A stretch of 64,000 nucleotides of DNA from Nemertoderma westbladi (taxonomy: Eukaryota; Animalia; Xenacoelomorpha), in the NCBI GenBank assembly GCA_032718475.1, contig JAUCBJ010008976.1, forward strand, positions 122,015-186,014. The letters run 5' to 3'. This document shows, in pieces, positions 21,311 to 51,056 of the stretch. Under the pieces are notes generated by a model. The model worked only from the letters and a program-made list of their open reading frames with translations, was not told the DNA's origin and searched no databases. The position numbers and the translations under genes were made by a program. How positions within the stretch are numbered: position 1 is the stretch's first letter; the number at the start of each line of letters is the position of its first letter.

Positions 21311-22177
21311 TGTAAAAGCTTTTGCGGAATTAGCTAGTCATTTTTCCCGTAAAGTATTCTGTAGGTGTTTTAACGGACATAAAAAGCCGTTTCCTTACTG
21401 TACCGGTGTTTTAGTGGACATAAAAAGCCATTTTTCTGTATGTGTGTACTTTAGCGGACATAACTAGCAATTTTATGTCGCAATGCATCAAAATACTCTT
21501 GATACAGTGTAGTTCAGATTACGACATCTACCAGCTGATTTGCTGTACTCGTGGAGCTTTCTTTGTTCGGCTCAGCCAATCAGAGCGATTTTCATTTTAT
21601 TAGCACAGAAGCCTCCGGGAAATCGCGCAATGCATTATGGTTTATGTTTACCTTTTCCTGATGCCAGAACATCGGCTGTGGAATAATTCTGTGTTTCAAC
21701 TTTTAGCAAAACATTAGTAGGCTTAGATTATAGAAAAGTATAGCTGTTATCTCACATACATACTCAACTCAGCATATCTCAGTGCAGTCTCGCATGGGAC
21801 AGTACCAGTACACACCGCATTATTTTACTGCTATTTACTGTTGGTTATTAATTGTATCAGTTGATGGAATATTGTTATATTTGGATAATCTCGATAAATA
21901 ATCAGAAAACCCCCCATCTTCTTGATATACTGAAGGTAAGAGACTGGTTACATATAGCAATTGCGACTCACATTATCGTGGTTTTGGAGTGACTCTAATG
22001 CTAATTTATAGGCACTACATGGGTCAATTGCTGTTCTCTTTATATGTGATTAAAATTAGTGAAGGTCGGCAGATCGGTGTGCAGCATTGTGCGGTAGTGT
22101 GCATGATTGTGAATGATAACAAAGCATTTCCTAAAGAATGCGCCTTATACGTAAATCAATAGCCTTCCCATTGTGTC

Positions 22178-23397
22178 TGTTCGCGCTTTTAAGACCTTTA
22201 GCAGTTTAACCTGCCAAATTTATATGTATTTTAGATTATAAATTGATATAAATATTATTAGTATCTATAGTATTTGATACAAATAAACACTACATTAGCC
22301 GAAGCCAGCCTAGTGCGCGACCATTCACCCGTTGGATATACCCGGGAGACTGGGTTCGGAAGACTTGACCTTATTGCGTTGTAAGCCTACTGTATTATTC
22401 GATTGATCGTTAATATATAATCTCTGACAAATATTATTCACTTTCGGTAAATATTAACAGTTCCTTTAGGAAGTGGCGCTCTAATTACGGGTATGTAAAC
22501 AGAGTTATGACTTATACTAAACACAACGGTATGGCTTATGATTCATGTATAAGGCGCATTCTTTAGGAGATGCTTAGTTACCTGTCAAACCATGCACTCT
22601 ATCGCACAATACTGCATACCAATCTGCCGACCTTTACTAATTTTAGTCACATATAAAGAGAACAGCAATTGACCCATGTAGTGCCTATGAAATAGCATTA
22701 GATTCACTCCAAAACCAAAATAATATGAGTCGCAATTGCTATATGTAACCTGTCTCTTACCTTCAGTATATCAAGAAGATGGGGTTTTTATGATTCTTTC
22801 TCGATATTATCCAAATATAATAATATTCCATCAACAACTGATACAATTAATAACCGACAGTAAATAGCAGTAAAATAATGCGGTGAAAGGCCATAATGCA
22901 TTGAGTGCATGGTGGTACCGTAATACTTGGCTTGTTATGGTAACAGTTATACGTTCCGGTAATCAAGCCGTTCTAATGTTTGGCTAAAGTCTGAAACACA
23001 GAATTATTCCACAGCCGATGTTTGTGGCGTCAGGAAAAAGGTAAACATAAACCGTAATGCATTGCGCGATTTCCCGGAGGCCTCTGTGTAATAAACTGAA
23101 AATCACGCTGATTGGTCGAGTGATTGCACAGAGTGGGCCTGAACAAAGAAAGTTCCAGGAGTACACCAAATCAGCTGATAGATGTCGTAATCTGAACTAC
23201 ACTGTGTAGAGAGTATTATGGCGTATTGCGACATAGGATTGCTAGTTATGTCCGCCAAAGTACACATACAGAAAAATAGCTTTTTATGTCCACTAAAATA
23301 CCGGTACAGTAAGGAAACGACTTTTATGTCCTTTAAAACATCTAAAGAGTACTTCGCGGGGAAAAAATGACTAGCCAATCCCGCAAAAGCCTTTACA
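22178..23397 (-). repeat. 3' LTR of element B
   Basis: Near-identical to 51796-52999; PPT complement CCGCTCCC at 23398. Confidence 0.95.
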
Positions 23398-26657: not shown

Positions 26658-29600
26658 TTATGTTATGGAGTCCCTAGATATTTGTCGGATTAGGGAAGTG
26701 GTCGTAGGAAGAGTATCTTGCCTTCCATAGTTTCCGGACAGTTTTCGGTCTCTTTCCAGTAAACATAAACGACCAGCTGGGCGATTGAGTTGTTGTGTTA
26801 CTTTCTCCACTCCCTTGGCCTGTCTAATCTCCGCCGTGGTAAGCTGAGGAGGCCATTCATCTTCTTCTTTGCTTAGGAAGTCGGGTCCACTTAACCAGTC
26901 CGGAGTATCTATCAGTTCTTGAGGAGCTGCTCCTCTGGAAGCGATGTCGGCTGGATTAATCGTCCCAAGGCAATGTCTCCATTGATCTTCATTAGAGTTA
27001 ATATCGTCATTATCTGAGGAGTATGGTATTCCCTCAGTTGGATCGTCCACCTCACTGCTCTCCACTTCCCATTTACTTACGTGGTAGACCCGTTCTTTGG
27101 GCAACCTTTCCATGAGTGTTCTACGGGACGGACCAGTAAGGTACCAACCTACTCTAGTTCTTCCCGCATAAGCTTGTAGTGGTTGCGGTTGAGCAGGCCG
27201 TTTCTCCAATGTCTCGAGCGCTTCATGCGCGTTTTGACCGATGAGTATTTGCACTCCAGGGTAATCGGTGTCGAATCTAGGTATTTCAAGCTGCTGGGTG
27301 AAATCGTCCTCATCCCAGTTATAAGGTTCCACTTGGCTGGTAGCGAAGTTCTTTATCGCCACCATCTTTACTGACCTTATACTATGTTCTCCCAGTTCAT
27401 CCTGGGGGGTGGACAACGCGCCTACATAATAATCAGCTATTACGGTAGATTTCCAAACCTGCACAATTCCTGACAAGTTTAGCTTAGTTCGGAACTTGGG
27501 TTGTCCAGCAAAGATGTCTTCGGCTAGTTCTTTGTCGATGAATGTTCCTGTGCTACCGGAGTCAAGGAGGGCGTTCACTATATAACTCCTTTTAGGTCCT
27601 TGGACCCTTAACTGTACTACAGGAAATTCTCGGATTCCTACATTGGAAGTTGGCGCTTTCCAAGATGGTTGTCGATCAGAAGTAGTTAGGGTGAGGTCGC
27701 TGTCGGGGTCTCTTTCATACTTAAGTGCTCGATACACTGCGGTATTTATTAGGTAACAGGATTCGACTTGGTCGGAGAATTCGTCCGTATAGAATCCTTC
27801 CATCTCAGAACTTTGGTCAGTATCATTCACATCACTGAATTGGACATGCAGTTCGGACCCACTTACCTGACTCGGGCTGTTTCGTACGAATTCAGTGTGC
27901 AACAAGATATGATGTTTTGCACCGCACTTTGCACACCTTGTGTCGGAGTAACAGGTTCGCCGTTGGTGTCCTCGTCTGAGGCAATTATAACACAACCGCT
28001 TATCCCACATGACTTCACGTCTATCTTTTAATGATTTCCTCAGGAATTCATCACACGCACTTAAACGGTGGGGCCCGTCGCACAACACACATTTGGGCTT
28101 GATGTTACTTACTTTAACCTGTGCTGTGTGGTGCACACTTGTTCTTTCCTCGGGCTTTCTTCTATGAATTCTCTTAGGAGACGTAGGAGGAGTTTTTCTT
28201 ATCTGTTCTCTCCTGTCATGGGTTCGAGACTTGAATTTACTTACCTGTTCTTTAGGCGTTTTATTGACATAATAAGATCTTTCAGTGTCTTTACCGCTGT
28301 CCTCTCCTTGAGAAGTCTGGCTTTCGCCGTCGTCGGTATAACACACTGGTATTACCTTTCTCCTCCTAGAAACGGGTTTCTCACTTACCTTATTTTCCGG
28401 TGTCTTCTCTCTGGACTGTTTTAGGAGCTGTAATTTTACCTCTCTATCTAAGGAATGACATGAGATCAGCCATGGTAGGGTCTCTTCGTTGTTGTTCCAT
28501 CATATATAACACTTTCTTGTCCCAGCGTGTACCTACTCCACCCTTGGGCAAAGTAGATGCTAAGGCTCCTACAACCATAGAATTCTGGTATTCATGAGAC
28601 TTACCTAACCAATCTAGTTGTCTACAGATCTCCTGAATCTCGTCGGAAAACTCTATAATCCCGCTGCTAAGAAACTTTCGGGGCGCCATTAATTTCGCAT
28701 ATAAATACCTAGCTATGTTAGTCCTATTACCATACCTGATGTTTAGTGTATCCCAAACTTGTCTTAATCCATCTGGATGTCCAATAAACTTTAACGACAT
28801 TAACTTGGGAGATCCTTCCAAGCACTCGATGAGGTATCTAAGTTTCTCTCCATTGGATAATACAGAGTTCTGTAAGTTATCTTTGTAATATTCATTAAAA
28901 GGTAACCATTTCATCTCATCTCCGTTGAACTTGACTATCTCTCCAACCTTTACCGCTTGACGGGCTTCGGTTCTAGCCATTTGACGCGTAAAACTTTCTT
29001 GGGCCATCGTATTATTTAATATCGAGTTATCGGTATATAAATTTCTCGGATTATTATCAAGTCTATATGGAATATCATTGTCAACAGGTTTATAATTACC
29101 CTTAATAGGGTTTACTATAGTAGTTTCTACTTCACTAGCAGTATAGATGCGTGTAGGCTCCACACCTTGCGCATGAAATACTTCAGACCTAACAGGTTGA
29201 CACATTGTTACAGAGGGTGGTGGTATACCCTTTTGTATATTTACTAATTTATCGCATTCTAACGCGATATTTTGCTGCACTTCTCGCAACTCTAACTTAC
29301 TTTCTCTTACTGTTCCCTTTAGCTGTTGAACAGTCCCTTCTAACTCTCGGACCTGTTGGGAGGAGCGAACCTGATTCTCCTCCATCTTCCCGAGGAGAAT
29401 ATCCATCCCCCGCCTTCTCTCATACACCCAATCAACTGCCGAAGCAGGATACGCCAACGTTGTAGCGGGTGGACGAGGGACAACGGGCGACAAACCATTA
29501 ATATTTCGCTCGGAGTCAGGGACATGAACATTTTCAGGGGCGCAGGTAGCTTAGTGCTGTGAAGAGGGAATTTAGAGATATGTTCTGGGAGCACAGGTGT

Positions 29601-31353
29601 CTCTATCACCGAAGGGGTGATTTCAAGAACAGGCCTAATTATTTCAGGCTCATCTACTATAGTAGGGAGTCTTTCTATTTTAATTATTTGGTCTGTGGGC
29701 TCTGTACTACCTAAGCCTGTGTTAGTTAGTTGCCTTCTAACAGTTGGGGGCAAATCAGGCAATTTCTGATGGTGGGACATTCTTCTACGGCTGCTTAGAC
29801 GAGATCTATTTCCTCCACCTTCAGGATCGGTGGTATCGCCTTCATCAGATGATGTAAATCCCTGCCGTTTGGGAGTAGATCGTCTCATCATCTGCATTTG
29901 ACTAGCTGTTAACTGTTTATTTATGTAGTCTTGCCTCTCTTGAAGATTTTCCAACTCTAGTTGGGTTGTCTCTTCAGATGCCCTCCGTTCTGCTTCTGCC
30001 ACTGCCTCCGCCGCTGCTACAGCCGCTTTTCTTTCCGCTTCGGCCGCTACTTCTGCCGCCTTTCTTTCCGCTTCGGCCGCTGCTTCTGCCGCCTTTCTTT
30101 CCGCTTCTGCCTTTGCCATTGCCGCTGTTACTGCTGCTGTCTATCTGTCTTCTATTCGTTTTTTCTTTACTTGTTCCTCTTGAACCTTAGTGAGGCGGAT
30201 GCTTTCATCGAATCTAGCTTGGTTCGCAGCTAACATATCTACATCGATTGCGTCCAACACAAGTTTGGCTCCTTCACTATTAGGGCTAAGTCCATCCAGC
30301 CGTCTCCTCAACTCTTCGTCCCCTACAAATCGTTGATAGTCTGACAGATAGATGTCAATAGCATCCCTCTTATGCAGTTTCTCTGCTGTCGCTTCGCTTT
30401 CCACTTGGGAAAAGGTAGCGTCTGTTGATTCTCCATGGGTTGAGCGCTCATCCAACTGAGATTTCCACGGGGTAGTTCTTTGAACTTGGAGGCTCACCCG
30501 CTGAAACCAACGGCAACTTTACGGCAACTTGCAACGACGTGTCTTGTCTTCTTTTTGAAGCTTCCTCAAAGGCAGATAAGATTAGTCTGATTCTTAGAAT
30601 TCTTTCTCTAACTTGATAAAGCAGCTTTCCCTGCTCTTGAGGTCCTTGTGGTTGTCGAAACAATTGTTCCTCTAATCGCTCCATAGAGCTGAAGAATCCC
30701 TGCACGTATCCGGCTGCTGACCTCTTCCATACAGCTGGATCGCTGGTTTCTTTTGTCACTCCCATCCTGTGTATGTCTTCCCAGGCAGCTTCCGATAAGT
30801 AAAACAGGAGTCCAGGTCTGGGGAAGTTCCATTGCGACTCGACAATAGACTCCAGTTCTTCCCTTGTGTATCCCGCATAACTATCCTTAGTCGATCGCTT
30901 ACTTCTCGCCCAATCAATCTGGTGTTCCTCCACCGCAATCAATACCCTAGTGAGTACGGCTGCAGGAAGGATGATAAGGTGGTCCGAATAAACCGCATCC
31001 GCCATCTTCGCTCCGCGTTCGGGTGTCAGCTCTACAGTATCCGAACTACTGGAGCTATCGGGCCGCTGAGAACTAGGCTCTTGGCTAGGATGTTGCTGCT
31101 GCTCGACAGCCGCTTCTTGATCCCGCTTGACTTGGGCCCGAGTGCCGATAACAGACCTACGGCGCTTCACTAACTTCGCAAATTGCGAAATTGCTTCTAC
31201 TAACCTAGGTTCTGATACTACTACTGGAGAGATGACCTTTCTTACAGTAGGAGGTGAGTTGAACTTGGGTCTTACACGTTCCACACTCCTGTCTGGGTCA
31301 CAGATGGTGGTATCTAAGAGACTGTCTGACAGGTTCTGCTTTGTATCAGACAT
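26658..31353 (-). pseudogene. gag: gag-protease with deleted RT/RNase H/integrase (element B)
   Basis: DUF1759-like FNGD..W...EKLRYL, three Cys/His knuckles, LLDSGS protease, then DQWRH..NPADIASRG fused to TQQLNRP; several frameshifts. Confidence 0.9.
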
Positions 31354-32857
31354 GTTTACTTGTACAGTTGAATGCCTACTGCTATGATTACAGTTAAAGC
31401 AAGTCTAGTAACTCAGTATTACCGTTAGCCTAGTAATTAATTACCGATATCGTTACTCAGTGTAGCGTGATATATATACAATATATTAGAATACCGGTAT
31501 ACACTTATAGTATATATATAAGTATTATTACAAACTAGGTTTGTCACAGAATACCGGTATGTAATTTCAGCACAAATATATATAAATATATAATAGGCCT
31601 ATCGTGAATACCGGTATACAGCTTACACTTATAGTATATATAAGTATAATTATGGACTAGAATTAATTACAGAATACCGGTACCGGGTATATAAGTTCAG
31701 CCTAAATTTATTGAAATAAATATAATAAGCCGATTGTAAGTACCGGGTATGTCAATTATTTCAGAATAATTGAATTCCTGAATTTTAGGGGTTACTTGGT
31801 TACTTTACGTTACCTTTTTACCATTATTTAAGCAGTAGTCCAACTGATATTGAGACCTAATTGTTGTATGGCAGGCCTACTATTTATAAATTGTTTGAGT
31901 TGATTTATAATATATATATACCCGTTTAATGGGTTTTGTCAATATTTGAAATAAATGTTATTATTTCTGGGGGAAGTCACTACACAGAAGCTGTGCGCTC
32001 TCAGTGAAGTGCTACTTGTTGGACACTAAAACAAATAATTCTAATTTACCTAAGTTACTTAATACTACAAATTACGTACAATTCGTTGTGAGATTACAAT
32101 CTCTAAATAAACAAAAAAATTACAAGTACGAATTTTTAGGGTAATTTTACAAGAAGTCTACAAACCAGCCTAACAAAGGGTTAGAATATCTGGTTATTAC
32201 AATGGACAGGGTACTACGGTATTTGAAAATAACTAAGCGGTAGTAAATATACTGCGTTGTCCAGATAGGAAAATACCACCGTCTGACGACTTATTGCCAT
32301 ATCACTATAAGTACTACATTATGTATCACGGAGTGTTCCTACCTAGAAGTTAATTACCGCGGTCTACCAGAACCAACGTGCCTATTAACCACTTTACAAC
32401 ACAAATATACTGCCTACACACTAATTACCTTCGGAAAGCACTGTACACTAAACCCTAGATTAGGTACAAGTACTTGTATAACAAATAATCAGCAATTAAA
32501 AATACTTGTACAGCTAAAAGAACCACGGTATCTGCCGGAGTGACCAAAGCACAAAATCTCCAGTCTTTACCTACGCCGAGCAGCCCTGATGTAGTACCGG
32601 GGTTAATTTAACTATAACGGTATGTATAACAAGCACAATCACTGTATGAATAAACTTGGGGATATGAATGTTGCGAATAATCGCATAAACTCTGAATAAT
32701 AAATATTACGCTACCCGTACAGACTACTCAAACAAAATACAAACCAAACGCTGGCAGACTACTATCAAGCCTAAATAAACTACAGTATGTGCAGATTCCG
32801 AAATGGTTAGTTAGTATGCGTTCTAACCGAGTAGGACGACTTATTCTTTCGGGGGGT

Positions 32858-34020
32858 TTACCTTACAGTGAGGCGGATGCTTTCATCGAATCTAGCTTGG
32901 TTCGCAGCTAACATATCTACATCGATTGCGTCCAACACAAGTTTGGCTCCTTCACTATTAGGGCTAAGTCCATCCAGCCGTCTCCTCAACTCTTCGTCCC
33001 CTACAAATCGTTGATAGTCTGACAGATAGATGTCAATAGCATCCCTCTTATGCAGTTTCTCTGCTGTCGCTTCGCTTTCCACTTGGGAAAAGGTAGCGTC
33101 TGTTGATTCTCCATGGGTTGAGCGCTCATCCAACTGAGATTTCCACGGGGTAGTTCTTTGAACTTGGAGGCTCACCCGCTGAAACCAACGGCAACTTGCA
33201 ACGATGTGTCTTGTCTTCTTTTTGAAGCTTCCTCAAAGGCAGATAAGATTAGTCTTATTCTTAGAATTCTTTCTCTAACTTGATAAAGCAGCTTTCCCTG
33301 CTCTTGAGGTCCTTGTGGTTGTCGAAACAATTGTTCCTCTAATCGCTCCATAGAGCTGAAGAATCCCTGCACGTATCCGGCTGCTGACCTCTTCCATACA
33401 GCTGGATCGCTGGTTTCTTTTGTCACTCCCATCCTGTGTATGTCTTCCCAGGCAGCTTCCGATAAGTCAAACGGGAGTCCAGGTCCGGGGAAGTTCCATT
33501 GCGACTCGACAATAGACTCCAGTTCTTCCCTTGTGTATCCCGCATAACTATCCTTAGTCGATCGCTTACTTCTCGCCCAATCAATCTGGTGTTCCTCCAC
33601 CGCAATCAATACCCTAGTGAGTACGGCTGCAGGAAGGATGAGAAGGGGGTCCGAATAAACCGTATCCGCCATCTTCGCTCCGCGTTCGGGTGTCAGCTCT
33701 ACAGTATCCGAACTACTGGAGCTATCGGGCCGCTGAGAACTAGGCTCTTGGCTAGGATGTTGCTGCTGCTCGACAGCCGCTTCTTGATCCCGCTTGACTT
33801 GGGCCCGAGTGCCGATAACAGACCTACGGCGCTTCACTAACTTCGCAAATTGCGAAATTGCTTCTACTAACCTAGGTTCTGATACTACTACTGGAGGGAT
33901 GACCTTTCTTACAGTAGGAGGTGAGTTGAACTTGGGTCTTACACGTTCCACACTCCTGTCTGGGTCACAGATGGTGGTATCTAAGAGACTGTCTGACAGG
34001 TTATGCTTTGTATCAGACAT
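32858..34020 (-). pseudogene. gag: Duplicated 5' gag fragment of element B
   Basis: Near-identical to 30190-31353 (offset ~2.67 kb). Confidence 0.9.
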
Positions 34021-35201
34021 GTTTACTTGTACAGTTGAATGCCTACTGCTATGATTACAGTTAAAGCAAGTCTAGTAACTCAGTATTACCGTTAGCCTAG
34101 TAATTAATTACCGATATCGTTACTCAGTGTAGCGTGATATATATAGAATATATTAGAATACCGGTATACACTTATAGTATATATATAAGTATTATTACAA
34201 ACTAGGTTTGTCACAGAATACCGGTATGTAATTTCAGCACAAATATATATAAATATATAATAGGCCTATCGTGAATACCGGTATACAGCTTACACTTATA
34301 GTATATATAAGTATAATTATGGACTAGAATTAATTACAGAATACCGGTACCGGGTATATAAGTTCAGCCTAAATTTATTGAAATAAATATAATAAGCCGA
34401 TTGTAAGTACCGGGTATGTCAATTATTTCAGAATAATTGAATTCCTGAATTTTAGGGGTTACTTGGTTACTTTACGTTACCTTTTTACCGTTATTTAAGC
34501 AGTAGTCCAACTGATATTGAGACCTAATTGTTGTATGGCAGGCCTACTATTTATAAATTGTTTGAGTTGATTTATAATATATATATACCCGTTTAATGGG
34601 TTTTGTCAATATTTGAAATAAATGTTATTATTTCTGGGGGAAGTCACTACACAGAAGCTGTGCGCTCTCAGTGAAGTGCTACTTGTTGGACACTAAAACA
34701 AATAATTCTAATTTACCTAAGTTACTTAATACTACAAATTACGTACAATTCGGTGTGAGATTACAATCTCTAAATAAACACAAAAATTACAAGTACGAAT
34801 TTTTAGGGTAATTTTACAAGAAGTCTACAAACCAGCCTAACAAAGGGTTAGAATATCTGGTTATTACAACGGACAGGGTACTACGGTATTTGAAAATAAC
34901 TAAGCGGTAGTAAATATATACTGCATTGTCCAGATAGGAAAATACCACCGTCTGACGACTTATAGCCGTATCGCTATAAGTACTATGTTATGTATCACGG
35001 AGTGTTCCTACCTAGAAGTTAATTACCGCGGTCTACCAGAACCAACGTGCCTATTAACCACTTTACAACACAAATATACTGCCTACACACTAATTACCTT
35101 CGGAAAGCACTGTACACTAAACCCTAGATTAGGTACAAGTACTTGTATAACAAATAATCAGCAATTAAAAATACTTGTACAGCTAAAAGAACCACGGTAT
35201 C

Positions 35202-36389
35202 TGTAAAAGCTTTTGTGGGATATAACTGGCCCTTTTGCTTCGCAATCCAGTTTCCCTCAATGCGCTCAAATACTCTAAAGAAAAACTCCCTAACTCAAAG
35301 GATGAAAGCTACCGGCTGATTGGCTGATTTGCCTAGCGACGGCCTCTTTGTTCGGTTCGATCAACCAACCAGAGCAAGGTCAACCAAGCAGAGTGATTCA
35401 TCCTGTGTGTTAGCTACGGGCTGCAAAGGCTAGGGAGGTTTGGCATTTCGACATTCGTGGAACCTATGGAATCTGGAACTCTGCCAATGAGAGCTTTCCC
35501 TTTTGTGTTGAAAGCTACCTGCAACAGCTCACAGGGTTCAGTGTGTTGGTTTTTCCTGAGCCTAGAAACATCGGCTGTGGAATATTTCTGAATTATTCCA
35601 ACATTAGAACGTCTTTAATTATAAGATCACATAACTGTTACCGTGAGAACAGCACAGCACAGCACTGGACAGCGGAGGTACGGTACGGTACCTACTGCTG
35701 TATTGCACATTATTTACTGCTATTTACTGTTTGTTATTAATTGTATCAGTTGTTTACATATTGTTATTTGGAGAATAACGATAAACGATCAGAAACCCCG
35801 ATCTTCTTGATACACTAAGGTTAGAGAGAACGGTTACATATAGCAATTGCGGCTTATATTATCGTGGTTTGTAGTGAATTGAATGCTATTTTATAGGCCC
35901 TACAAATGTCGGTTGCTATTCTCTTTATATATGATTAAAATCAGTGACTATCGGCAGTGCAGTGTGCAGCGGTGTGCAATAGTCTGTATGTGCTTGTCCG
36001 CGTAACAAAGCATCTCCTAAAGAATGCGCCTTATGTGTAACTTATAATCCATTCCGTTGTGTTTAGTGTAAGCCATAGCTCTGTTTACATAGATAGAGCG
36101 CCACGTCCTAAAGGAACTGCTAATATTTCCCGAAAGTGAATGATATTTGTCAGGAATTATATTAACGATCAATCGAATATTACGGTAGGCCTGCACCGCA
36201 ATCAAATTAAAGCATCCAAATCCAGTCTCCCGGGTATATCCAGCGGGTGAATGGTCGCGCATAGACTGGCTTCGGCTAATGTTGGATTTATTTGTGTCAA
36301 ATACTTGTCATAGGCTAAAGTCGATTTATAACCTAGAAGACATATAGATTTGGCGGGTTAAACTGCCAAAGGTCTCAAAAGCGCGAACA
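35202..36389 (+). repeat. 5' LTR of element C
   Basis: TGTAAAAGC...GCGCGAACA. Confidence 0.97.
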
Positions 36390-36400
36390 GTAACAGTTAT
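36390..36400 (+). promoter_or_regulatory. Self-complementary primer-binding site of C
   Basis: GTAACAGTTAT is the reverse complement of LTR 35631-35641 ATAACTGTTAC. Confidence 0.75.
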
Positions 36401-36664
36401 CGTCTGATTGCAGTAGGCAATAAAGCTGAAGTACCGGACAACCGGTACCTAGTAGGCCTGACTACCTAACCACCCGGACCGGTACCTACAGCAGTACAGG
36501 TACAGCAGTATTGTTCGATTTGATAGTTATATACCGGTAGGCCTTAATATTAAATCAGGGAGGGCCCGCCCTGGTTTTTTATTGAGATTTTACTTATTTC
36601 TGTCAGTTTTATTTACTAGTAGGCTAATATTGAGCAGAAGGCGTGTAACCCTGCTCAGATCGTA

Positions 36665-37250
36665 CAGATAATTTGTAGGCTCGACTGTTGTCTGACCGTT
36701 GTTAAGGTCTGAATGGATTGCAGTGCATGTAGAGTGTATGTCCGATAAAGTGACGGTTAGGAAGTAGGGGCAGCCAGAGCTGTAAGGTAAATCCCCACCT
36801 AAAGAATAAGTCGTACTACTAGGTTAGAACGCATACTAACTAACCATTTCGGAGTCTGCATGTCCTGTAGTTTATTTAGGCTTGATAGTAGTCTGCCAGC
36901 GTTTGGTCTGTACTTTGTTTGTGTAGTCTGTACAGGTACCGTAATATTTCTTATTCAGATAATTTATAGGCTAGATTGTTGTCAGGCTGTTGTTAGGTCT
37001 GAAGAGATTGTAGTGTGTGTAGAGTGTCTGTCCGATAAAGTACTAGTTGGGAACGTTGGGGCAGCCAGAGCTGTAAGGTAAACCCCCTCTGAAAGAATAA
37101 GTCGTACTACTCGGTTAGAACGCATACTAACTAACCATTTCGGAATCTGCACATACTGTAATTTATTTAGGCTTGATAGTAGTCTGCCAGCGTTTGGTTT
37201 GTATTTTGTTTGAGTAGTTTGTACGGGTAGCGTAATATTTATTATTCAGA
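36665..37250 (+). repeat. ~291-bp tandem duplication in the 5' leader
   Basis: Units start at 36665 and 36956; also duplicated in D (53765/54067), single in B. Confidence 0.9.
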
Positions 37251-38586
37251 GTTTATGCGATTATTCGCAACATTCATATCCCCAAGTTTATTCCTACAGT
37301 AATTGTGCTTGTTATATATACCGTTATAGTTAAATTAACCCCGGTACTACATCAGGGCTGCTCGGCGTAGGTAAAGACTGGTGATTTTGTGCACCGGTCA
37401 CTCCAGCAGATGCCGTGGTTCTTTTAGCTGTACAAGTGTTTCTAACTACTGATTATTTGTTGTACAAGTACTTGTACCTAATTTAGGGTTTAGTGTACAG
37501 TGCTTTCCGAAGGTAATTAGTGTGTAGGCAGTATATTTGTGTTGTAAAGTGGTTAATAGGCACGTTGGTTCTGGTAGACCGCGGTAATTAACTTCTAGGT
37601 AGGGACACTCCGGGATACATAACGTAGTACCTATAGCGATACGGCTATAGGTCGTCAGACGGTGGTATTTTCCTATCTGGACAACGCAGTGTATTTACTA
37701 CTACTTATTATTTTCAAATACCGTACTATCCTGTCCGTTTGTAATAACCAGATTTCTAGCCCTTTGTTAGGCTGGTTTGTAGACTTCTTCAAAATTCTTC
37801 AAAATTCTAAAAATTCGTATTTGTGTTTTTTTTAATTTTTGTGTTTATTTAGAGATTGTAATCTCACCCCGAATTGTACGTAATTTGTAGTATTAAGTAA
37901 CTTAGGTAAATTAGAATTATTTGTTTTAGTGTCCAACAAGTAGCACTTCACTGAGAGCGTACAGCTTCTGTGTAGTGACTCTTTCTCAGAAATAATAACA
38001 TTTATTTCAAATATTGACAAAAACCCATTAAACGGGTATATATATTATAAATCAACTCTAAACGATTTATAAATAGTAGGCCTGCCATATAACAATTAGG
38101 TCTCAATATTAGTTGGACTACTGCTCAAATAACGGTAATAAAGTAAGTAAAGTAACCAAGTAACCCCTAAAATTCAGAAATTCAATTATTTAAAATAATT
38201 GATATACCGGTATTCACGATAGGCCTATTATCTTTATTTCTATAAATTTAGGCTGAAATTATACCGGTATTCTGTAATTAATTCTAGTCCAGAATTATAC
38301 TTATATATACTATAAGTGTAGGCTGTATACCGGTATTCACGATAGGCCTATTATATATATATATATATTTGTGCTAAAATTATATACCGGTATTCTGTGA
38401 CAAACCTAGTCTGTAATAAAATTTATATATACTATAAGCATACCGGTATTCTAATATATTATATATATATCACGCTACACTGAGTAGCAGTATCGGTAAT
38501 TAATTACTAGGCTAACAGTTAATACTGAATTACTAGACTTGCTTAGACTGTAATATAGCAGTAGGCATTCAACTGTGCAAACAAAC

Positions 38587-41500
38587 ATGTCTGATACTAA
38601 GCAGAACCTGTCAGACAGTTTATTAGATTAACTATTTGCGACTCAGATAGGGGTGTTGAACCGTCTAGATCTAAGTTCCGTTCACCTCCTACTGTGAGGA
38701 AGGTCATCCCTCCTGTAGTAATATCAGACCCTAGGCTAATCCAACACTGTAGGTCTATCATCGGTACTCGGGCCCAAGTTAAGCGGCATCAAGAAGCAGC
38801 TGTCAAACAGCAGCAACCTCCTAGCCTATAACCTAGTTCTCAGCGGCCCGAGAGCTCCAGTAGTTCGGATACTGCTGAGCTAACGCCCGAACGCGGAGCG
38901 AAGATAGCGGATACGGTTTATTCGGATCCCCTTCTCATCCTTCCTGCAGCCGTACTCACCAGGGTATTGATTGCGGTGGAGGAACACCAGATTGATTGGA
39001 CGAGAAGTAAGCGAGCGACCAAGGATAGTTATGCGGGATATACACGGGAAGAACTGAAGTCTATTGTCGAGTCGCAATGGAGCTTCCCCGGACCCGGACT
39101 ACCGTTTGACTTATCGGAAGCTGCTTGGGAAGACATACACAGGATGGGAGTAACAAAGGAAACCATCGATCCAGCTGTATGGAAGAGGTCAGCAGCCGGA
39201 TACGTACAGGGATTCTTCAGCTCTATGGAGCGATTAGAGGAACAACTGTTTAGACAACCACAAGGACCTCAAGAGCAGGGAGAGCTGCTTTATCAAGTTA
39301 GAGAAAGAATTCTAAGAATCAGACTAATCTTATCTGCCTTTGAGGAGGCTTCGAAAAGAAAGCAAGACACATCGTTGCAAGTTGCCGTAAAGACTTGGTT
39401 ACAGTGGGTGAGTCTCCAAGTTCAAAGAGCTGCCCCGTGGAAATCGCAGTTAGATGAGCGCTCAACACTTGGGGAATCCACAGATGCTACCTTTTCCCAA
39501 GTGGAAAGTGAAGCGACAGCAGAGAAACCGCATAAGAGGGATGCTATTGACATCTGTCAGACTATCAACGCTTTTTGGGTGATGAAGAGTTGAGGAGAAG
39601 GCTGGAAGGACTTAGCCCTAATAGTGAAGGAGCCAAACTTGTGTTGGACGCGATCGATGCGGATATGATAGCTGCGAACCAAGCTAAATTTGATGAACAA
39701 CTCCGCATCGCTAGAGTCCAAGAAGAACAAGTAAAGAAAAGGCGGATAGAAGCCAGAAAGGCAACAGCAGTAGCAGCGGCAATGGCAACGGCAGAAGCAG
39801 AAAGAAAAGCGGCGGTAGCAACGGCAGTTGCAATGGCAGAAGCAGAAAGAAAGGCTGCAGTTGCAGCGGCAGAGGCAGAAGCGGAAAGAAAAACAGCAGT
39901 AGCAGCGGCAATGGCAACGGCAGAAGCAGAAAGAAAAGCGGCTGTGGCAGAAGCAGAACGGAGAGCGTCGGAAGAGACCACCCAACTGGAGTTGGAAAAT
40001 CTGCAAGAGACGCAAGACAACATAAATAAACAGTTAACAGATAGTCGAATGCAGATGATGAGTCGATCTACTCCCAAACGCCAAGGATATACATCATCTG
40101 AGGAAGGCGATACTACCGATGCTGAAGGCGGAGGAAATAGATCTCGTCTAAGCAGACGTAGAAGAACATCTCACCGTCAGAAATTGCCTGATTTGCTCCC
40201 AGCTGTTAAAAGACAACTAACTAGCGTAGGCTTAGGTAGTACAGAACTCACAGACCAAATAATTAAAATAGAAAGACTCCCTACTATAGTAGATGAGCCT
40301 GAAATAATTAGGCCTGTTCTTGAAATCACCCCTTCGGTGATAGAGACACCTGTACTCCCAGAACCTACCTTTAAATTCCCTTTACACAGCACCAAATTAT
40401 CTGTGCCTAGAGGAACAGCCCCGGAAACAGTGTCGGTCCTGGACTCCGAGCGAAATATAAAAGATATATCGCCCGTAGTCCCTCGTCTGCCCGCTACAAC
40501 GTTGGCGGATCCCGCTTCGGCGGTTGATTGGGTAGACGAGAGACAGCGGGGGATGGACATTCTCCTCGGAGAGATGAAGGAAAATCGAGTGCGCTCCTCC
40601 CAACAGGTCCGAGAGTTAGAAGGGACTGTTCAACAGTTAAAGGGAACCGTAAAGGAAAGTAGGTTAGAGTTGCAAGAAGTGCAGCAAAGTATCGCGCTAG
40701 AATGCGATAAATTAGCAAATTTACAAAAGGGTATACCACCACCCCCTGTAACAATATGTCAACCCGTTAGGTCTGAAGTATCTCATGCGCAAGGTGTGGA
40801 GCCTACACGCATCTATACTGCTAGCGAAGTAGAAACTCCTATAGTAAACCCTATTAAGGGTAATTATAAACCTGTTGACAATGATATCCCATATAGACTT
40901 GATAATAATCCGAGAAATTTATATACCGATAACTCGATATTAAATAACACGATGGCCCAAGAAAGTTTTACGCGTCAAATGGCTAGAACCGAAGCCCGTC
41001 AAGCGGTAAAGGTGGGAGAGATCGTCAAGTTCAATGGAGATGAGATGAAATGGTTACCTTTTAATGAATATTATAAAGATAACATACAGAACTCTGTGCT
41101 ATCTAACGGAGAGAAACTCAGATACCTCATCGAATGCTTGGAAGGAACTCCTAAGTTAATGGCGTTAAAACTTGTTGGACATCCAGATGGATTAAGACAA
41201 GTTTGGGATACTCTAAACTTCAGGTATGGTAATAGGAATAACATAGCTGGGTATTTGTATGCAAAGTTGGTAGCGCCCCGAAAGTTTATTAGCAGCGGGA
41301 TTATCGAGTTTTCCGATGAGATTCAGGAGATCTGCCGACAATTAGATTGGCTAGGTAAGTCTCATGAGTATCAGAGTGCTATGGTTATTAGAGCAGTGAC
41401 TTCTACTTTACCGAAAGGTGGAGTAGGTACACGCTGGGACAAGAAAGTGTTATATATGATGGAACAACAACAACGAGACCCTACCATGGCTGATCTCATG

Positions 41501-44500
41501 TCATTCTTGGATGGCGAGGTGAAATTACAGCTCATAAAGCAGTCCAGAGAGAAGACATCGGAAAGTAAGGTAAGTGAGAAACCCGTTTCTAGGAGAAAGG
41601 TAACACCAGTATGTTATACCGACGACGGCGAAAGCCAGAATTCTCAAGGAGAGGATAGCGGGAAAGATACTGAAAGATCTTATTATGTTATTATGTTTAT
41701 GTTTATTATGTTATTCAAAACAAGGTAAGTAACATCAAACTGAAATGTGTGCTATGTGACGGGACTCACCGTTTGAATATGTGCGATGAATTCCTAAAGA
41801 AATCATTAACGGAGAGACGGGAAGTCATGTGGGATAAGCGGTTGTGTTATAATTGCCTCAGACAAGGACACCAACGGCGAACCTGTTACTCTGACACAAG
41901 GTGTGCAAAGTGCGGTGCGAAGCATCATATCTTGTTGCACACTGAATTCGAGCGAAACAGCCAGGGTCAGGTGAGTGATTCCGAATTACATGTCCAATTC
42001 AGTGATGTGAACGACACTGACCAAAGTTCTGAGATGGAAGGATTCTATACGGACGAGTTCTCCGACGAAAACGAATCCTGTTACATGATAAATACCGCAG
42101 TGTATCGAGCACTCATGTATGAAAAAGACACAGACAGCGACCTCACCCTAACTACTTCTGATCAACAACCATCTTGGAAAGCGCCAACTTCCAATGTAGG
42201 GATCCGAGAATTTCCTGTAGTCCAGTTATGGGTCCACGGACCTCAAAGGAGTTATATAGTAAACGCCCTCCTTGACTCCGGTAGCACAGGAACATTCATC
42301 GACAAAGAACTAGCCGAGGACATCTTTGCTGGACAACCCAAATACCGAACTAAGCTAAACATGTCAGGAATAATGCAGGTTTGGAAATCTACAGTAATAG
42401 CGGATTATTACGTAGGTGCGTTGTCTACCCCCCAGGATGAACTAGGAGAACACAGTATAAGGTCAGTAAAAATGGTGGCGATAAAGAACTTCGCTACCAG
42501 CCAAGTGGAACCTTATAACTGGGATGAGGACGATTTCACCCAGCACCTTAAAATACCTAGATTCAACACCGATTACCCTGGAGTGCAAATACTCATCGGT
42601 CAAAACGCGCATGAAGCGCTCGAGACATTGGAGAAACGGCCCGCTCAACCGCAACCATTACAAGCTTATGCGGGAAGAACTAGAGTGGGTTGGTACTTTA
42701 CTGGCCCTTCCCGTAGAACTCTCATGGAAAGATTACCGAAAGATCAGGTATATCAAGTACGAGAATGGGAAGTTGAGAACAGTGAGTTAGACGATCCAAC
42801 TGAGGGAACTCCATACTCCTCAGACAACGACGATATACACCGACTCTTCGATGAGGAGAATACAATAGATCTCCTTACGGAAAACGAGACTTGGCAAAAC
42901 CAAGTAAACCTATGTCAGCTCATTCGTCCATCGGAATGAGACGACTATAACGACGAACTGAATGACGTCATTGAACGTTATAATGCCAAAACTCGGGATG
43001 AACACGCCGTACGATTCTTTACTCAAGAGGCTGTAGAGCCCAATTCGTACGACAAGGCCCTATCGGTAGAAGAAGAAAGAGCCAAGCAGATCCAAGAGAC
43101 AACTACCCGTTTTCTGAAAGATCAAGGTAGATATGAAATCGGTCTACCTTTCCGAAAGCGAGAACCAAAGTTCATCAACAACAGACCCTTGGCGGAGAAA
43201 AGAATTGCTCAACTACATCGACGCCTTACGGCAAATTCTTCAGCTAAAGAAATGTATCAAACGCAGTTGAAGAAATTTATTAGCAAGGGATATGCGGAGC
43301 TAGTATCGGAAGAAACACCTATAACTGAGAGAACGTATTATTTAACTCACCATTACGTTCCCAAACCCGGTAAACCTCACGAAGTACGAGTAGTGTTTGA
43401 CGGCTCCGCCCTCTACATGGGCCAATCCCTTAATTCCGAATTGTTACTCCAATCCTTGTTGGGAATACTTTTAAGATTAAGACAATATTCAGTTGCTTTC
43501 GCCTCAGATATAGAAGGCATGTTCTTACAAGTCAAGGCACTGGATAGGGATCGAGATAGCCTACGATTTCTGTGGTGGCCTGAAGGAGACCTCAACCAGA
43601 AACCGGTGGAGTACTGGATGACCATCCAGGCTTTTGGAATAATCTCAAGCCCTTCAAACGCCTGTTCAGTGGTGCGCACCACTGTGGATGACAATCGGGA
43701 AGCCTTCTCTAAAGAGGTGATCGACAATATCAAACGAGACATATACATGGACGATAATCTAAAGTCCCTTCCATCAGTCAAAGAAGCCATTGATGTCGCT
43801 AAAGGAACGGTAGAGTGTTTAAAAAGAGGTGGATTTCGATTAACTAAATTCACCAGCAACTCCCGTGAGTTTCTGGAATCGATCCCGGTGGAAGATCGAG
43901 GAGCGAAAGACTTAGACCTAATCAAAGATGATCTTCCAGAGACTAAGACACTTGGTTTGAAATGGGACACAGAGAGGGATATCCTGTTTTTCCAGCTAAA
44001 ACAGCGAGATAATCCAGTTCGAACTAAATGGATTTGTTTAAGTATCCTGAGCACTTATTTCGATCCATTGGGATTTATTAGCCCAGTTATATTAATTGCT
44101 CGGAGTTTAGTACAACAAATGTGGCTAGAAAACCACTCATGGGACGATCCACTTAAGGGAGAATTATTAAAGAAGTGGATGAAATGGGAAGATTCTTTAC
44201 CAGCCATCGAGAACTTTATAATTTCCCGTTCATATTTTGGTCATGTTCTCCCTACGTATTCCTATCAACTCCATGTGTTTGGAGACGCCAGCGATATGGG
44301 AATAGGTATAGAAGCCTACCTAAGACTGGAAACTCCAGATGGAATCAAGGTTGCCTTGGTTACCTCTAAGGCGTTGATAAACAACAAGTTGAAGGTTCCT
44401 CGAGCGGAGTTAAAGGCGGCTCTATACGCTACAGCCATCGGTCGGAATGTAACGGAACAGATCGATTATCCATTGGAGAAAACTGTCTATTGGACCGACG

Positions 44501-46629
44501 CTTTACTCGTGTTGGAGTATATAACCAATGAAGTCTGTCAGTTCAGCGTCTTCGTTACCAACAGAGTAGCCATTATACTTAGTCGCACGACGATGGACCA
44601 ATGGAGACATTGCCCCGGAACGATCAATCCAGCCAACATCGCCTCCAGGGGAGCAACTCCACAAGAACTGGTAGATACTCCAGACTGGTTAGGTGGACCC
44701 GACTTCCTGTACAAAGAAGAAGAAGAATGGCCTCCTCATCTTACTACAGCAGAGATTAGACAGGCCAAGGGAGCGGAGAAAGTTAAACCTAAAACTCGGG
44801 CGAGTAAATCGAAGTTATTTAAACCTATGGTAGACCTGTCCGTACTACATACTTCCGGAGACGACGCTTTGGATCAGAAACCCACAGCCGCAAACAAGCA
44901 GGTTATGGAAATCCGTGAGAAGGATTGGAAATCTGGAATACCAGACGTTTCGCAAGGACTCTCACCTCTCCTGCAGAGAGCGATACATCACTACAGTTCC
45001 TGGAATCGGCTCTGTAAAGCCGTAACATATTTAAAACGATGTTTTCATCATCACTACTCCGGGAAGAAGACCAATAGTGATACAGCTCCACTGACATCAG
45101 TGCAGGTCCATGTTGCTAAAGATCTTCCCAAATATAAGATATCAGACAGGTTTCTGAAGGAGAAGATCAGCTATCAGGAGCATGAAGAAACCAACAAACA
45201 GATGCTGAGACTCCTGCAATGCTATGAGGATTCCGATAAGTATTTCCTGTTGTTGAGAAATCCACAGATGCGCTTAAGGGATCGTTTCTCTAGCACAATG
45301 ATAGATGGGTTGATACGTGTTGGAGGAAGATTAACGAATGCTCCATTATCCTTTGACACTAAGTTTCCCATACTCATTAGAAATCTTGAAATACAAGTCA
45401 AGATGATTGTAGATGTTCACAGCAAACTTTATCATGCTGGTAGAGAACGAGTTCTTAGCGAAATTCGAACTCGCTATTATTTCTACAAACCCCGTAGAGC
45501 TCTGAACCAAGTTCTTAGGAACTGCATACCCTGTAGGAAAGCGTTCAGTAGGCCTTTAACACAGCGAGAGGCAGAATTACCTAGGGAAAGAGTAAGCTTC
45601 TATGAACCACCCTTTACTAACACCAGTGTAGATTTATTTGGCCCTATTGAAGTGTATCGTGCTAGAACTATAGTCAAGAGATGGTGTGTCATCTTTGTTT
45701 GTATGACTTGTAGAGCTATCCATCTCGATATTGTGAACGATTTGTCTACCAACAGCTTCCTATTAAGCTTACGACGACAGATCGCTCGCTTTGGAACTAG
45801 TAACACAATGAGATCTGATAAGGGAACGAACTTCATTGGTGCCAACAATGAAATCAAAGCTTACGTCAAAGATTGGAACCAAAGACAGGTGGATGATCAG
45901 CTAAGAGTAACAGCGTCTAGCTGGACCTTCAACGCCGCCGACGCCCCTTGGTGGGGAGGAAGTTGGGAGAGATTGATTAGAAGTGTGAAGACCGCATTTC
46001 ACTTTATAGTGCCTTGCCGCGCGTATCTCACCGACGAACTTTTGCGGACGTTAATGGAGGAAATCGCCGCCTATCTCAACAAGAGACCGCTTATGCCAGT
46101 CTCATCGAGCCCCGATTCCCTGGAAGCGCTAACACCCGCGCATTTCCTACTGAAGAAACCTGTAGCCATGCTCCCACAATCGGAAATCACAGACGGAGAC
46201 GAATACTGCCGGCAAACTTGGCAACTTATGCAGTTGTTATCCCGTCGTTTCGCTGACCATTTCGAGAAACATTATCTGCCCACGCTACAACTTCGAACTA
46301 AGTGGTTTGCGCAGCAAGAAAACGTCAGCGCTGGAGACATGGCCCTTATTGTAGATTCAGATCTTCCACGTAAGCGGTGGCAAACAGGTCTTATCATCGA
46401 GACTCACATCTCGGATGACGGTTTGGTGCGATCGGTAGAACTCGTCGTCATGCGACGTAACTTCAAGAAACCGGGAATTGTCTTTGAGACACAGCAGCTC
46501 AATCGCCCAGTTGGTCGTTTGTGTTTACTGGAAAGAGACAGAGAACTCTCCAGAAACTATGGAAGACAAGATACTCTTCCCACGACCACCTCCCTAATAC
46601 AACAAACATCTAGGGACTCCCCAGCTTAG
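38587..46629 (+). pseudogene. gag-pol: gag-pol polyprotein of element C (frameshifts/stops near 38630, 38828, 39555, 41690, 42937)
   Basis: Gag knuckles CYNCLRQGH, protease LLDSGS, RT SDIEGMF/YMDD, RNase H FGDAS, integrase HAGRE/DLFGP/RSDKGTNF/WERLIRSVK, BEL-type C-terminal tail. Confidence 0.95.
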
Positions 46630-48263
46630 TAACATCTGGAGTGGGTGTGTGACCATATTATTTTATATTCTTATTATTTTATACTTATGTATGCATTATT
46701 ATGTAATTTTATTCTAATCGTTTTATTTAATTTTATTTAGTAGAATGTTATTTAGCGATTATTTAGTAGATTAGTGCAATATATATTCGCGTTTATTACT
46801 TAATTACTTATATATTATATATTTAATGCGACGGCGAGAAATAATTCTTTTTTCTCTTTCCTTACTATGCGTATTATATTATAAATACGTGACTACAGTA
46901 AGATGAAATGTCTGTACTTATCAAAGTACAATAAAGCCACTACTATATTTAAGTATTATTGGTAAGCAGAGTATTAGGAATGCAAAGTTCAGATCCTCGT
47001 GTCTCGGCTAAACCAAGCTCTGGGTAGACCTTGGAAACGACTTGCCTCCTCACACTGACATTGCTTCGTGCGATATTGCTCTCATACCGTATATTAAATA
47101 ATACATATAGTAGCGTGATGTCCCTTTAACAGTAGCGTAAAACGCAAAATAAATCTGTTAAACCCTTTGACCATCTGCAATTCTATTCGATTAAGATATC
47201 GCGGCACCCACCGATATACTTGAAAGACAAAATTCTAGAATCAGTGGTTAACGTCCCCAGACTTGTTCTGGAATAAACCGGTGCCCATCCTAAATATTAA
47301 TTATTAATATTTATAAAATCTGTCAAATTTCAGATCCTTTAAAATTCTAGTCGATTAAGATATCGTAGCACTTACCGATACTCTTAAAAGGACAAATCCC
47401 TAGAATCAAGGATCCCAGTCCCCAGACTTGTTCTGGAATAAAATTGTGTCTATTTAACATTAAATAATAAAATTTACGGGAATAAATTTAAATTCATATT
47501 TTAATGAATTCAATAAATTGTTATTTTTATACAATTTATAATATTCCCAAAATTCCATTAATTAATAGATCATGGGAGCAGAGATTCACCTATTAAGTGT
47601 ATTAGTGTGCGAGAATCTCCAATATAGAGTCAATAGCCGATAAAATTCATAAAATCATATATAAAGATGATATTGACCATTAAAGTCTTACTATTAAATA
47701 GCATCCCAGATCTGTATGCATGGGAATTACCCTAATTCTACCGCTAGCTTTCCATAATGTCACCATAGCAACAACCACGCTAGAATTAGAAGCGAGTTAA
47801 CAGAACAATAAAAAGCTTGCTCATTGAATAGCATACGGAATAAATAGCACACTGTTAGTATCCAAGGATACATAATAATAACGTGACATTCTGGAAGGCA
47901 CTTGACTAACGGACAAATGACCCGAATGTGTGACAGAATGTGTACCATTTGTGACAGTTACGTGGAATTTGTGCGTTTGTAGGTGAATGTTACTACTAAG
48001 GTGTGTTTACAGTAGCGAGTCGCAATTGTGAAAGTAGCCCTAACTCTCCAGTAAGAACCTGAAGTATATCTAAGCCTTTGGGATGGACGGTGGAGTGACT
48101 CATGCTGGTTGTTGTAGTCGTTGTGCAGCTACGACGTTGACGTCGGCGAAAGTACACCAGCGCTGAGGATCTCGCACTGTCCGGGGGCAGAGAGGGGTAG
48201 GCAGCGACGCCCGCTCGCCTAAATATAAACTCATTATAATATGGATAAACTTATATAGCAGAT

Positions 48264-49843
48264 ATGATTGAGTTGATAGAAGACGATCTTGGTATCAGGG
48301 AGCGATATACTCTACCTTTACAAGCGTTTGTTGATAGCTTGATACGCGGTGACGCTGGTCCAACTACTACGGAGGATGATGGTCGTTATATCTAACCGCC
48401 AATGTCCCGGGAGCAACTTGCGCGTGGGTTGAACTGTAGAAAATTCACCGCTCGCTGTGCGCGTCGTAAATGGTACGTATATGGACTTCTTAACTACTGG
48501 TCATCCTATCGACCTACACGATACGAACGATATAGACACCAAAAGGGAAATGGTTTTATTTATATATCATACCCAGCGGAGGCGGAACAATAAACCGAGA
48601 ATCGAACATGAGAATTCTATTAGAAATCGACTCGAAAGAGAAGACGTTGAGGGACCGGATAAACGCAGCGACTTCACCAAAATATCTGGAATTCTTGAGA
48701 GAAACATATCTCGATATTACCAGTCAACAGAATCTAGAAACTCGATATCCTCAAGGTATACATCATGACCGCATGGTAGAACTCAAACGGCTCTATTCCA
48801 CTATGATGTATCTTACCGCCGATCGACTGCTACCTGTTGTACCGGATAGCTTCGAACAGATGGAGGAATATTGTAAGCTGGAGAAAGATCACTCGCGTTT
48901 CCCCTACAAGACGTGCGTCTTTGGTATTATTGCGATGAATGTCCTAGACCCAACCAACAAACGGAATGACATAAACATCCACGGAGACGTTGCTTTAAAC
49001 ACGGTTTTACTCGCTATACTTGCGGGAGTTTCGAGCGAAATTTGTTTGATGTATCACCTACGCTCGTTCGACTCAGACGATCCTTACATAAACCGATGAT
49101 CAGAGTTCCGGAATACTCGATCAGACCTCCTCATTCCCTAGTGAGACCTCAGGCTCTTGATCCTATTAGTATGACGGATCCTCCCGAGCTGTACTCACTG
49201 TTCAAAGATCTGGTGTTGCCTGAACAATTAGTCGGTGGCACCCCGGTTGTGGGCTTCCTAGATATTAGCCCATCCTACCTAGCCGGATTGGGACGCGGAC
49301 ATTTAATATCGCCGTTTAACCCTTACCATCGTCCCGGCTTAACCCGATACAACCTGTCACTGAGGCGGAGGAGAGAGTTGTACGAGACGCGTTGGACACT
49401 ATTCGTCAAAAGATCTGAAAATGAACCTACAATGGTTTAGAGAAACGTAAATTGCAGTAGAAAAGTCCAAGTGATAAACGAATTAACTTTATCTCAGTTC
49501 GATCAGGGAATTCAGAATCTCTAAGAGGATATCGAACTTGGACGACCATATTCTCTGCGAGAGTTTTTGGGATGAACGTATCCAGCTACGAGCGGAGGAA
49601 AATCAGCTCGAGGAGAAGCATATCGAAACGGCGGATACCCCGACCATAATCCTACACCTTCTGATGCAATCATATTGCACCCTTCACCCAGGAGTTATGG
49701 CCCTCCTAGTAAAGTGGCTCCCCCCAAAGAGAAAAAGACTCTTGCTATCTTTAAAAAACTGCGTAAACGCCGTCCACGCAAGAAAGACTAACTGTTTAGA
49801 GTATTTTTATATTTTAGAAACTGTGATTTTTTATATTTTATAG
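48264..49843 (+). pseudogene. ORF3 of element C, frameshifted
   Basis: ORF pieces 48457-48768, 48608-49099, 49042-49440, 49538-49843 homologous to A and B. Confidence 0.8.
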
Positions 49844-49869
49844 AATTAAATCCCATTTTCTGGGAGCGG

Positions 49870-51056
49870 TGTAAAAGCTTTTGTGGGATATAACTGGCCC
49901 TTTTGCTTCGCAATCCAGTTTCCCTCAATGCGCTCAAATACTCTAAAGAAAAACTCCCTAACTCAAAGGATGAAAGCTACCGGCTGATTGGCTGATTTGC
50001 CTAGCGACGGTCTCTTTGTTCGGTTCGATCAACCAACCAGAGCAAGGTCAACCAAGCAGAGTGATTCATCCTGTGTGTTAGCTACGGGCTGCAAAGGCTA
50101 GGGAGGTTTGGCATTTCGACATCCGTGGAACCTATGGAATCTGGAACTCTGCCAATGAGAGCTTTCCCTTTTGTGTTGAAAGCTACCTGCAACAGCTCAC
50201 AGGGTTCAGTGTGTTGGTTTTTCCTGAGCCTAGAAACATCGGCTGTGGAATATTTCTGAATTATTCCAACATTAGAACGTCTTTAATTATAAGATCACAT
50301 AACTGTTACCGTGAGAACAGCACAGCACAGCACTGGACAGCGGAGGTACGGTACGGTACCTACTGCTGTATTGCACATTATTTACTCTATTTACTGTTTG
50401 TTATTAATTGTATCATTTGTTTACATATTGTTATTTGGAGAATAACGATAAACGATCAGAAACCCCGATCTTCTTGATACACTAAGGTTAGAGAGAACGG
50501 TTACATATAGCAATTGCGGCTTATATTATCGTGGTTTGTAGTGAATTGAATGCTATTTTATAGGCCCTACAAATGTCGGTTGCTATTCTCTTTATATATG
50601 ATTAAAATCAGTGACTATCGGCAGTGCAGTGTGCAGTGGTGTGCAATAGTCTGTATGTGCTTGTCCGTGTAACAAAGCATCTCCTAAAGAATGCGCCTTA
50701 TGTGTAACTTATAATCCATTCTGTTGTGTTTAGTGTAAGCCATAGCTCTGTTTACATAGATAGAGCGCCACGTCCTAAAGGAACTGCTAATATTTCCCGA
50801 AAGTGAATGATATTTGTCAGGAATTATATTAACGATCAATCGAATATTACGGTAGGCCTGCACCGCAATCAAATTAAAGCATCCAAATCCAGTCTCCCGG
50901 GTATATCCAGCGGGTGAATGGTCGCGCATAGACTGGCTTCGGCTAATGTTGGATTTATTTGTGTCAAATACTTGTCATAGGCTAAAGTCGATTTATAACC
51001 TAGAAGACATATAGATTTGGCGGGTTAAACTGCCAAAGGTCTCAAAAGCGCGAACA
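49870..51056 (+). repeat. 3' LTR of element C
   Basis: Preceded by GGGAGCGG; direct repeat of 35202-36389. Confidence 0.97.

Follow-up and report, generated by a model that had tools for sequence, protein, structure and literature searches.

The window, by which we mean the whole 64,000-nucleotide stretch of the Nemertoderma westbladi contig analysed here, contains a nest of four related LTR elements, with A standing alone, B inserted in D, and C inserted in B (Table 1). The insertion of B interrupts the 5' LTR of D, and the target duplication is found at positions 22173-22177 and 53000-53004. Target duplications are 5 bases long, including that of C, and 4 of the 5 bases match in the duplication of A. 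The two LTRs of C are identical at 1181 of 1187 aligned bases, and those of B at 1179 of 1202. Within the window, the RT motif was detected in the C copy only, where the RNase H region is also present with one of its four motifs unmatched. A and B have a common deletion in the RT region (12336-12350 and 26987-27001), and they may represent a non-autonomous subgroup that would have spread in trans. The approximately 3.2 kb between pol and the 3' LTR (46630-49869) is 84-90% identical in A, B, and C, and no open frame of 200 codons was found in it. In the U3 of C (35240-35540), most bins have 20-50% identity to A, B, and D, compared with 60-95% for other LTR parts, and this segment appears to be a swapped promoter region. 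Further features of the window are a 2.35-kb direct duplication (98.5%; 30184-32534 and 32860-35203) adjoining the insertion site of C within B, a minus-strand fragment of a more distant BEL element (19639-21321) into which D appears to have been inserted, and, to the left of A, a 628-codon open frame with DUF6729 and a 93-base tandem repeat (7450-9336).

Table 1 Coordinates of elements A-D and of predicted RNA features in the window, with the relatives whose partner spans a splice junction.
Feature	Positions	Strand	Remarks
Element A	9890-17125	+	stands alone
A, 5' LTR	9890-11116	+	partner at 10354-10365
A, PBS	11117-11128	+	
A, 3' LTR	16231-17125	+	internal deletion, partner lost
D, 5' LTR, left piece	21311-22177	+	partner at 21740-21750
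B, 3' LTR	22178-23397	-	
Element C	35202-51056	+	nested within B
C, 5' LTR	35202-36389	+	1188 bases, TG...CA
C, arm upstream of partner	35601-35607	+	complement of U5 at 36276-36282; one compensated pair in A
C, partner (candidate self-primer, paired part)	35631-35641	+	second copy in the 3' LTR of C
C, candidate poly(A) signal	35934-35939	+	GT-rich tract follows; putative end of R
C, LTR arms of predicted U5-leader stem	36189-36204	+	pair with 36405-36418 just 3' of the PBS; two compensated pairs
C, LTR arm of predicted stem just 5' of the PBS	36252-36260	+	pairs with the last 9 LTR bases (36381-36389)
C, predicted U5 hairpin	36349-36370	+	8 pairs, kept in 4 of 4 elements
C, PBS	36390-36400	+	complement of 35631-35641
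C, leader arms of predicted U5-leader stem	36405-36418	+	
C, gag region	39551-41728	+	DUF1759
C, pol region (RT, RNase H, integrase)	42940-46629	+	Peptidase_A17, Integrase_H2C2, DUF5641
C, 3' LTR	49870-51056	+	preceded by a short purine tract common to A, B, and C
B, PBS	51784-51795	-	
B, 5' LTR	51796-52999	-	partner at 52553-52542
D, 5' LTR, right piece	53005-53486	+	
D, PBS	53487-53497	+	
Junction-type relatives: L003, L010, L014, L016, L031, L042, L043, L065, L069, L074			10-15 bases

The elements were assigned to BEL/Pao because Pfam searches gave DUF1759, Peptidase_A17, Integrase_H2C2, and DUF5641, in this order and with the integrase last. Their best protein relatives have 31-41% identity and the same domains, and the named ones are from aquatic animals. 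Like Belpaoviridae (Semotivirus), they have a Gag with DUF1759, a Pao-type pol, DUF5641, the order PR-RT-RH-IN, TG...CA LTRs of about 1.2 kb (within the 0.2-1.2 kb of the family), a purine tract, and a 5-base target duplication. They differ from the ICTV description in the missing 18-base PBS for host tRNA-Arg or tRNA-Gly, a descriptive trait in a family drawn by phylogeny (PMC8742986), since a TGG start was found neither in the four elements nor in any of the 13 relatives described below. In a tree of 194 unlabelled RT-RH stretches, the window element was placed on a long branch with weak support. The family was present at very high depth in public runs of one organism. A protein search of viral contigs gave no relatives, and an LTR-end pattern search of viral contigs and genome contigs gave no match.

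In each of the four elements, the 11-12 bases following the 5' LTR (the PBS) have a contiguous complementary partner about 750 bases upstream in the element's own LTR, at LTR position about 430-476, which is the Tf1-type arrangement of about 11 bases after the LTR complementary to that LTR. All 12 pairs are Watson-Crick in A and in B (the latter on the minus strand), as are all 11 in C, and D has 10 Watson-Crick pairs and one G-U. The sequence-only reading had reported these positions and letters, the lack of TGG after the 5' LTR, a pairing that ends exactly at the terminal CA of the LTR, and PBS positions 1, 6, and 8 that covary with the partner, and all of these were borne out. In A, B, and C, the 25 bases that follow the LTR contain no TGG, nor was it found in D, the base following the partner is C in 4 of 4 elements, and the three positions amount to three compensated pairs in the four elements. 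In a 4 × 4 cross table, cognate pairs scored at least as high as any non-cognate pair and non-cognate pairs gained mismatches, with the exception of B/C, which have one common 11-mer.

A perfect 11-base complement appeared in 4, 1, and 2 of 5000 dinucleotide shuffles of the LTRs of A, C, and B, respectively. Across 1180 gap-free columns, 11 helices were common to the four LTRs, and among these the PBS-partner pairing was the longest and alone had three compensations; column shuffles in two modes gave a helix of at least 10 pairs with at least 2 compensations in 0 of 60 cases each. The covariation nevertheless rests on few events, because there are only three distinct PBS forms and positions 6 and 8 change jointly, in A alone. 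All four 11-mers begin with A preceded by a pyrimidine, and pyrimidine-A is a usual start context of RNA polymerase II. Identity among the four LTRs drops to 17-57% across the 80 bases following the partner.

The partner of D was compared with contigs of four public runs, in which PBS and partner are unphased. Three of the four runs (two of them from one sample) contained a partner form exactly complementary to the PBS of D, so the G-U pair of D is probably a later private change. One run had a partner form with the change of A at a single position only. Run coverage dropped to zero one base past the partner, as expected of a functional edge. For one PBS variant (an extra T) and one partner variant, no mate was seen in the runs.

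Related BEL families were collected through a metagenome scan with a 30-protein alignment, from which 79 BEL loci were taken as the best of 508 confirmed. Long-range direct repeats were present in 38 of the 79; 17 were examined, and the 13 that allowed both the 5' LTR end and one complete LTR to be delimited were kept (L025, L034, L066, and L078 were dropped, the LTR of L043 ends in TA, and the end of L060 was set by hand). A first test for contiguous anchored complements in the relatives was mostly negative. This is explained by a splice test with canonical donors and acceptors (GT-AG) at offsets 0-4, for which the list of 13 had been fixed beforehand: the partner would mostly be split by an intron. 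A complement of 10-15 bases in the own LTR at offset 0-4 was found in 12 of the 13 relatives, and in 10 it exists only across a canonical GT-AG junction predicted from signals, with introns of 67-186 bases, 4-9 bases from exon 1, and 5-7 from exon 2. These 10 loci represent about seven families, L010/L016/L065 and L069/L074 being sisters. The complement is contiguous (10 bases) in L038 and L052, and L060 scored 5, with 12 contiguous bases at offset 9. By comparison, 1 of 146 non-cognate pairs reached 10, so that the check on related families suggested at the outset came out in favour of a PBS that follows its own LTR partner. Compensated changes were seen between sister loci (L010 versus L065, and L052 versus L060). 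Among eight further loci with cut 3' LTRs, four (L002, L022, L024, and L032) reached 10-11 bases at a predicted canonical junction, compared with 1 of 46 controls, and two of these four repeat families already counted.

The window family is contiguous, with a best spliced score of 0-4 in A, B, and C. A splice-built primer was considered for it and rejected; the junction-like matches in this family have weak donors, 4-18 of 48 fake junctions do as well, and the PBS of A tracks the contiguous partner. In a pruned tree (midpoint root, support 0.57 near the window element, L065 left out), contiguous forms are found at three separate places among the spliced ones. Rather than the private invention of one lineage that had been proposed, the self-complementary site looks clade-wide, with a partner mostly built at a splice junction.

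An aligned candidate poly(A) signal lies about 300 bases past the partner (ATTAAA in C and D, ACTAAA in A and B), and AATAAA or ATTAAA is found downstream of the partner in 11 of the 13 relatives. There is no conserved AATAAA within the four LTRs, and no TATA box about 30 bases upstream of the partner in the window elements; among ten relatives, L014 alone has one, 31 bases ahead of its paired segment. With such signals located past the partner, the RNA probably extends beyond it. These signals favour a primer from the 5' part of the RNA and disfavour the processed transcript 3' end that had been offered as the other option. Within the putative R, a possible 75-base intron was noted at about 10556-10631 (positions 667-742 of the A LTR) and at equivalent positions; its donor is strong in A, B, and D and weaker in C, its acceptor is conserved, and it is unrelated to the primer.

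A consensus fold of the four sequences, with the PBS constrained to be unpaired, predicted a stem on each side of the PBS, the one 3' of it being the two-part U5-leader stem, and a U5 hairpin. Pairing is retained in 115 of 116 cells of this predicted structure, and two pairs show compensation, a degree of covariation that 60 of 500 shuffles equalled and that is not significant. The Tf1 "pretzel" comprises, in the accessible part of its description, three duplexes, with two further stems joining PBS-adjacent stretches to the LTR (PMC10085805), and the stems predicted to flank the PBS here are consistent with this layout. In unconstrained folds, the probability of the primer duplex was about 1.0 in A, 0.27 in C, 0.21 in B, and 0.01 in D, and forcing the duplex, whose loop is about 750 bases, costs just 0-2.1 kcal/mol. 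In A alone, the U5-leader stem had a probability of 0.05 and faces competition from a local hairpin. The leader also contains AATAAA at 36419-36424, about 30 bases past the LTR, with equivalents in the leaders of A, B, and D. Predicted to be hidden in a hairpin competing with the U5-leader stem, it is a possible switch for early polyadenylation. Bases 22-28 upstream of the partner also form a covarying helix of 7 pairs, one of them compensated, with U5. This would place the RNA start upstream of the partner or else imply pairing of the 3' U3 with the 5' U5.

We consider it probable that these BEL/Pao elements prime themselves, given a PBS whose complement in the LTR covaries with it: the RNA would fold back, be cut, and prime, the relatives would act alike, and the window family would be an intron-less form. 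The predicted flanking stems, the poly(A)-type signal, and the site in 12 of 13 relatives add to this best reading. The sequence-only reading had arrived at self-priming as well, and we still infer it; what falls away are its option of a 3' end and its private origin. Very improbable, and largely refuted, is a chance likeness or by-product, through low-complexity or palindromic similarity or one old inherited inverted duplication. The sequence is AT-rich, the window holds only three PBS forms, and structures were selected after the sequences had been seen; against this stand both sets of shuffles and the compensated changes, and the unrelated PBSs of distant families each match their own LTR at a level that non-cognate pairs almost never reach. 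We also regard as unlikely a pairing that serves structure alone (as a dimer contact or a translation or packaging switch) while an unrecognized host RNA or tRNA fragment primes. A fixed host RNA would not explain a PBS that varies among families yet always follows the LTR partner, and the site abuts the LTR end, exactly the position of a primer, with no TGG start in 13 of 13 relatives. No tRNA genes were found in the window or in the 79 loci, and an Rfam search of the window gave no match. A structural role would fit the nearly palindromic PBS, in which 8 of 11 positions equal their own complement, and it has a parallel in the fungal GalEa Copia elements. In these, a near-palindromic motif by the LTR, the Conserved Hairpin Site, replaces the tRNA site with no known mechanism, but, as far as the available part of that study goes, no complementary LTR sequence was found there, whereas the complement is perfect and covarying here (PMC5445492).

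A third possibility retains self-priming and takes the primer from another copy of the partner, either the one in the 3' LTR of that RNA or one on a second, shorter transcript of the LTR that would work in trans. The partner is indeed found in the 3' LTRs of B and C, the covarying helix between the upstream bases and U5 could circularise the RNA, and the leader AATAAA, present in 4 of 4 elements, could end a short transcript. We nevertheless judge it quite unlikely. In the window elements and in 11 of 13 relatives, the poly(A)-type signals come after the partner, R would be lost if the 3' copy were cut, and an intron at the primer would persist most simply if the spliced 5' copy were the discarded primer.

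Under self-priming from the 5' copy, the 5' part of the element RNA would fold back to pair with its own PBS. A cut immediately 3' of the paired bases, which by analogy with Tf1 the RNase H of the element would likely make, would create a 3' end able to prime minus-strand DNA at the terminal CA of the LTR. R would run from just after the partner to a point beyond the poly(A)-type signal located some 300 bases further, with strong-stop DNA transferring to the 3' R and progeny taking the partner from the 3' LTR. In spliced relatives, the spliced 5' piece would be discarded as primer and the stretch recopied from the 3' LTR, which may be why the intron persists at the primer; the 3' LTR would therefore have to stay mostly unspliced, and splicing of the 3' copy could give rise to a contiguous family such as that of the window. 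A tRNA primer is copied during plus-strand synthesis. If the same holds for the primer here, any mutation of the partner would carry over into the PBS, and covariation would arise without double mutation.

The odds are about even between a primer of precisely the first 11 bases and a 5' fragment of greater length. The pyrimidine-A start in 4 of 4 elements and the TATA box of L014 speak for a 5'-terminal primer. The upstream helix speaks for a longer fragment, as does the very short first exon that would otherwise be demanded in spliced relatives, and the upstream helix together with the lack of a TATA box about 30 bases upstream fits poorly with a strict 11-base 5'-terminal primer. On a wider scale, we lean slightly towards a large animal BEL/Pao clade in which own-RNA priming would replace tRNA and, in most families, the host spliceosome would assemble the primer by removing an intron from the 5' LTR, with the high-copy window family as an intron-less branch.

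Self-priming has been described for Tf1/sushi elements (PMC4600332, PMC5341516, PMC7175516, PMC10085805, each as far as accessible), and the available part of one of these reports describes, for Tf1, a PBS paired with RNA bases 1-11 and an RNase H cut that separates base 11 from base 12 (PMC7175516). Tf1/Tf2 of Schizosaccharomyces pombe and other Tf1/sushi elements (Ty3/gypsy chromoviruses; Tj1, Tosmo, Tcn1) resemble the window elements in having no tRNA site and in having about 11 bases after the 5' LTR that complement the own LTR (PMC7175516, PMC10085805, PMC4600332, in their accessible parts). The likeness in those texts extends to two further stems between PBS-adjacent stretches and the LTR downstream of the primer, which are predicted here. 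The proteins here, in contrast, are of BEL/Pao and not chromovirus type, with no chromodomain hit, and the loop is about 750 bases. The BEL relatives differ further in their predicted splice-junction partner, since Tf1/sushi elements are not so described in the parts of these sources available. The window elements would work like Tf1/sushi elements but are not members of that group. Self-priming was also predicted from sequence for the TAR lineage of plant Ty1/copia elements (Houba, Osr-1), a second superfamily, in the accessible part of that work (PMC6317226); that lineage differs in being Copia and from plants. With self-priming having arisen more than once, a third origin would be less surprising.

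Our search of largely open-access literature found no BEL/Pao self-priming and no splice-built primer, in agreement with the earlier view that the former is unreported, and ICTV describes tRNA priming (PMC8742986). Searching two papers by term gave no text on PBS or tRNA (PMC554778, PMC3118150), and the available portions of three others contain no BEL self-priming (PMC5443660, PMC3601003, PMC5445492). Strong sequence-level evidence points to a known mechanism in a superfamily without such a description. Among LTR superfamilies, BEL/Pao alone has a replication cycle that is almost unstudied, and it is described as tRNA-primed. If self-priming is true, it would be a third origin of the Tf1 mechanism and would explain why PBS-based annotation misses these elements, and the model gives exact predicted RNA ends. 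A splice-built primer in the relatives, if true, would connect host splicing with the onset of reverse transcription in a new way, and the replication of most families in the clade would depend on splicing.
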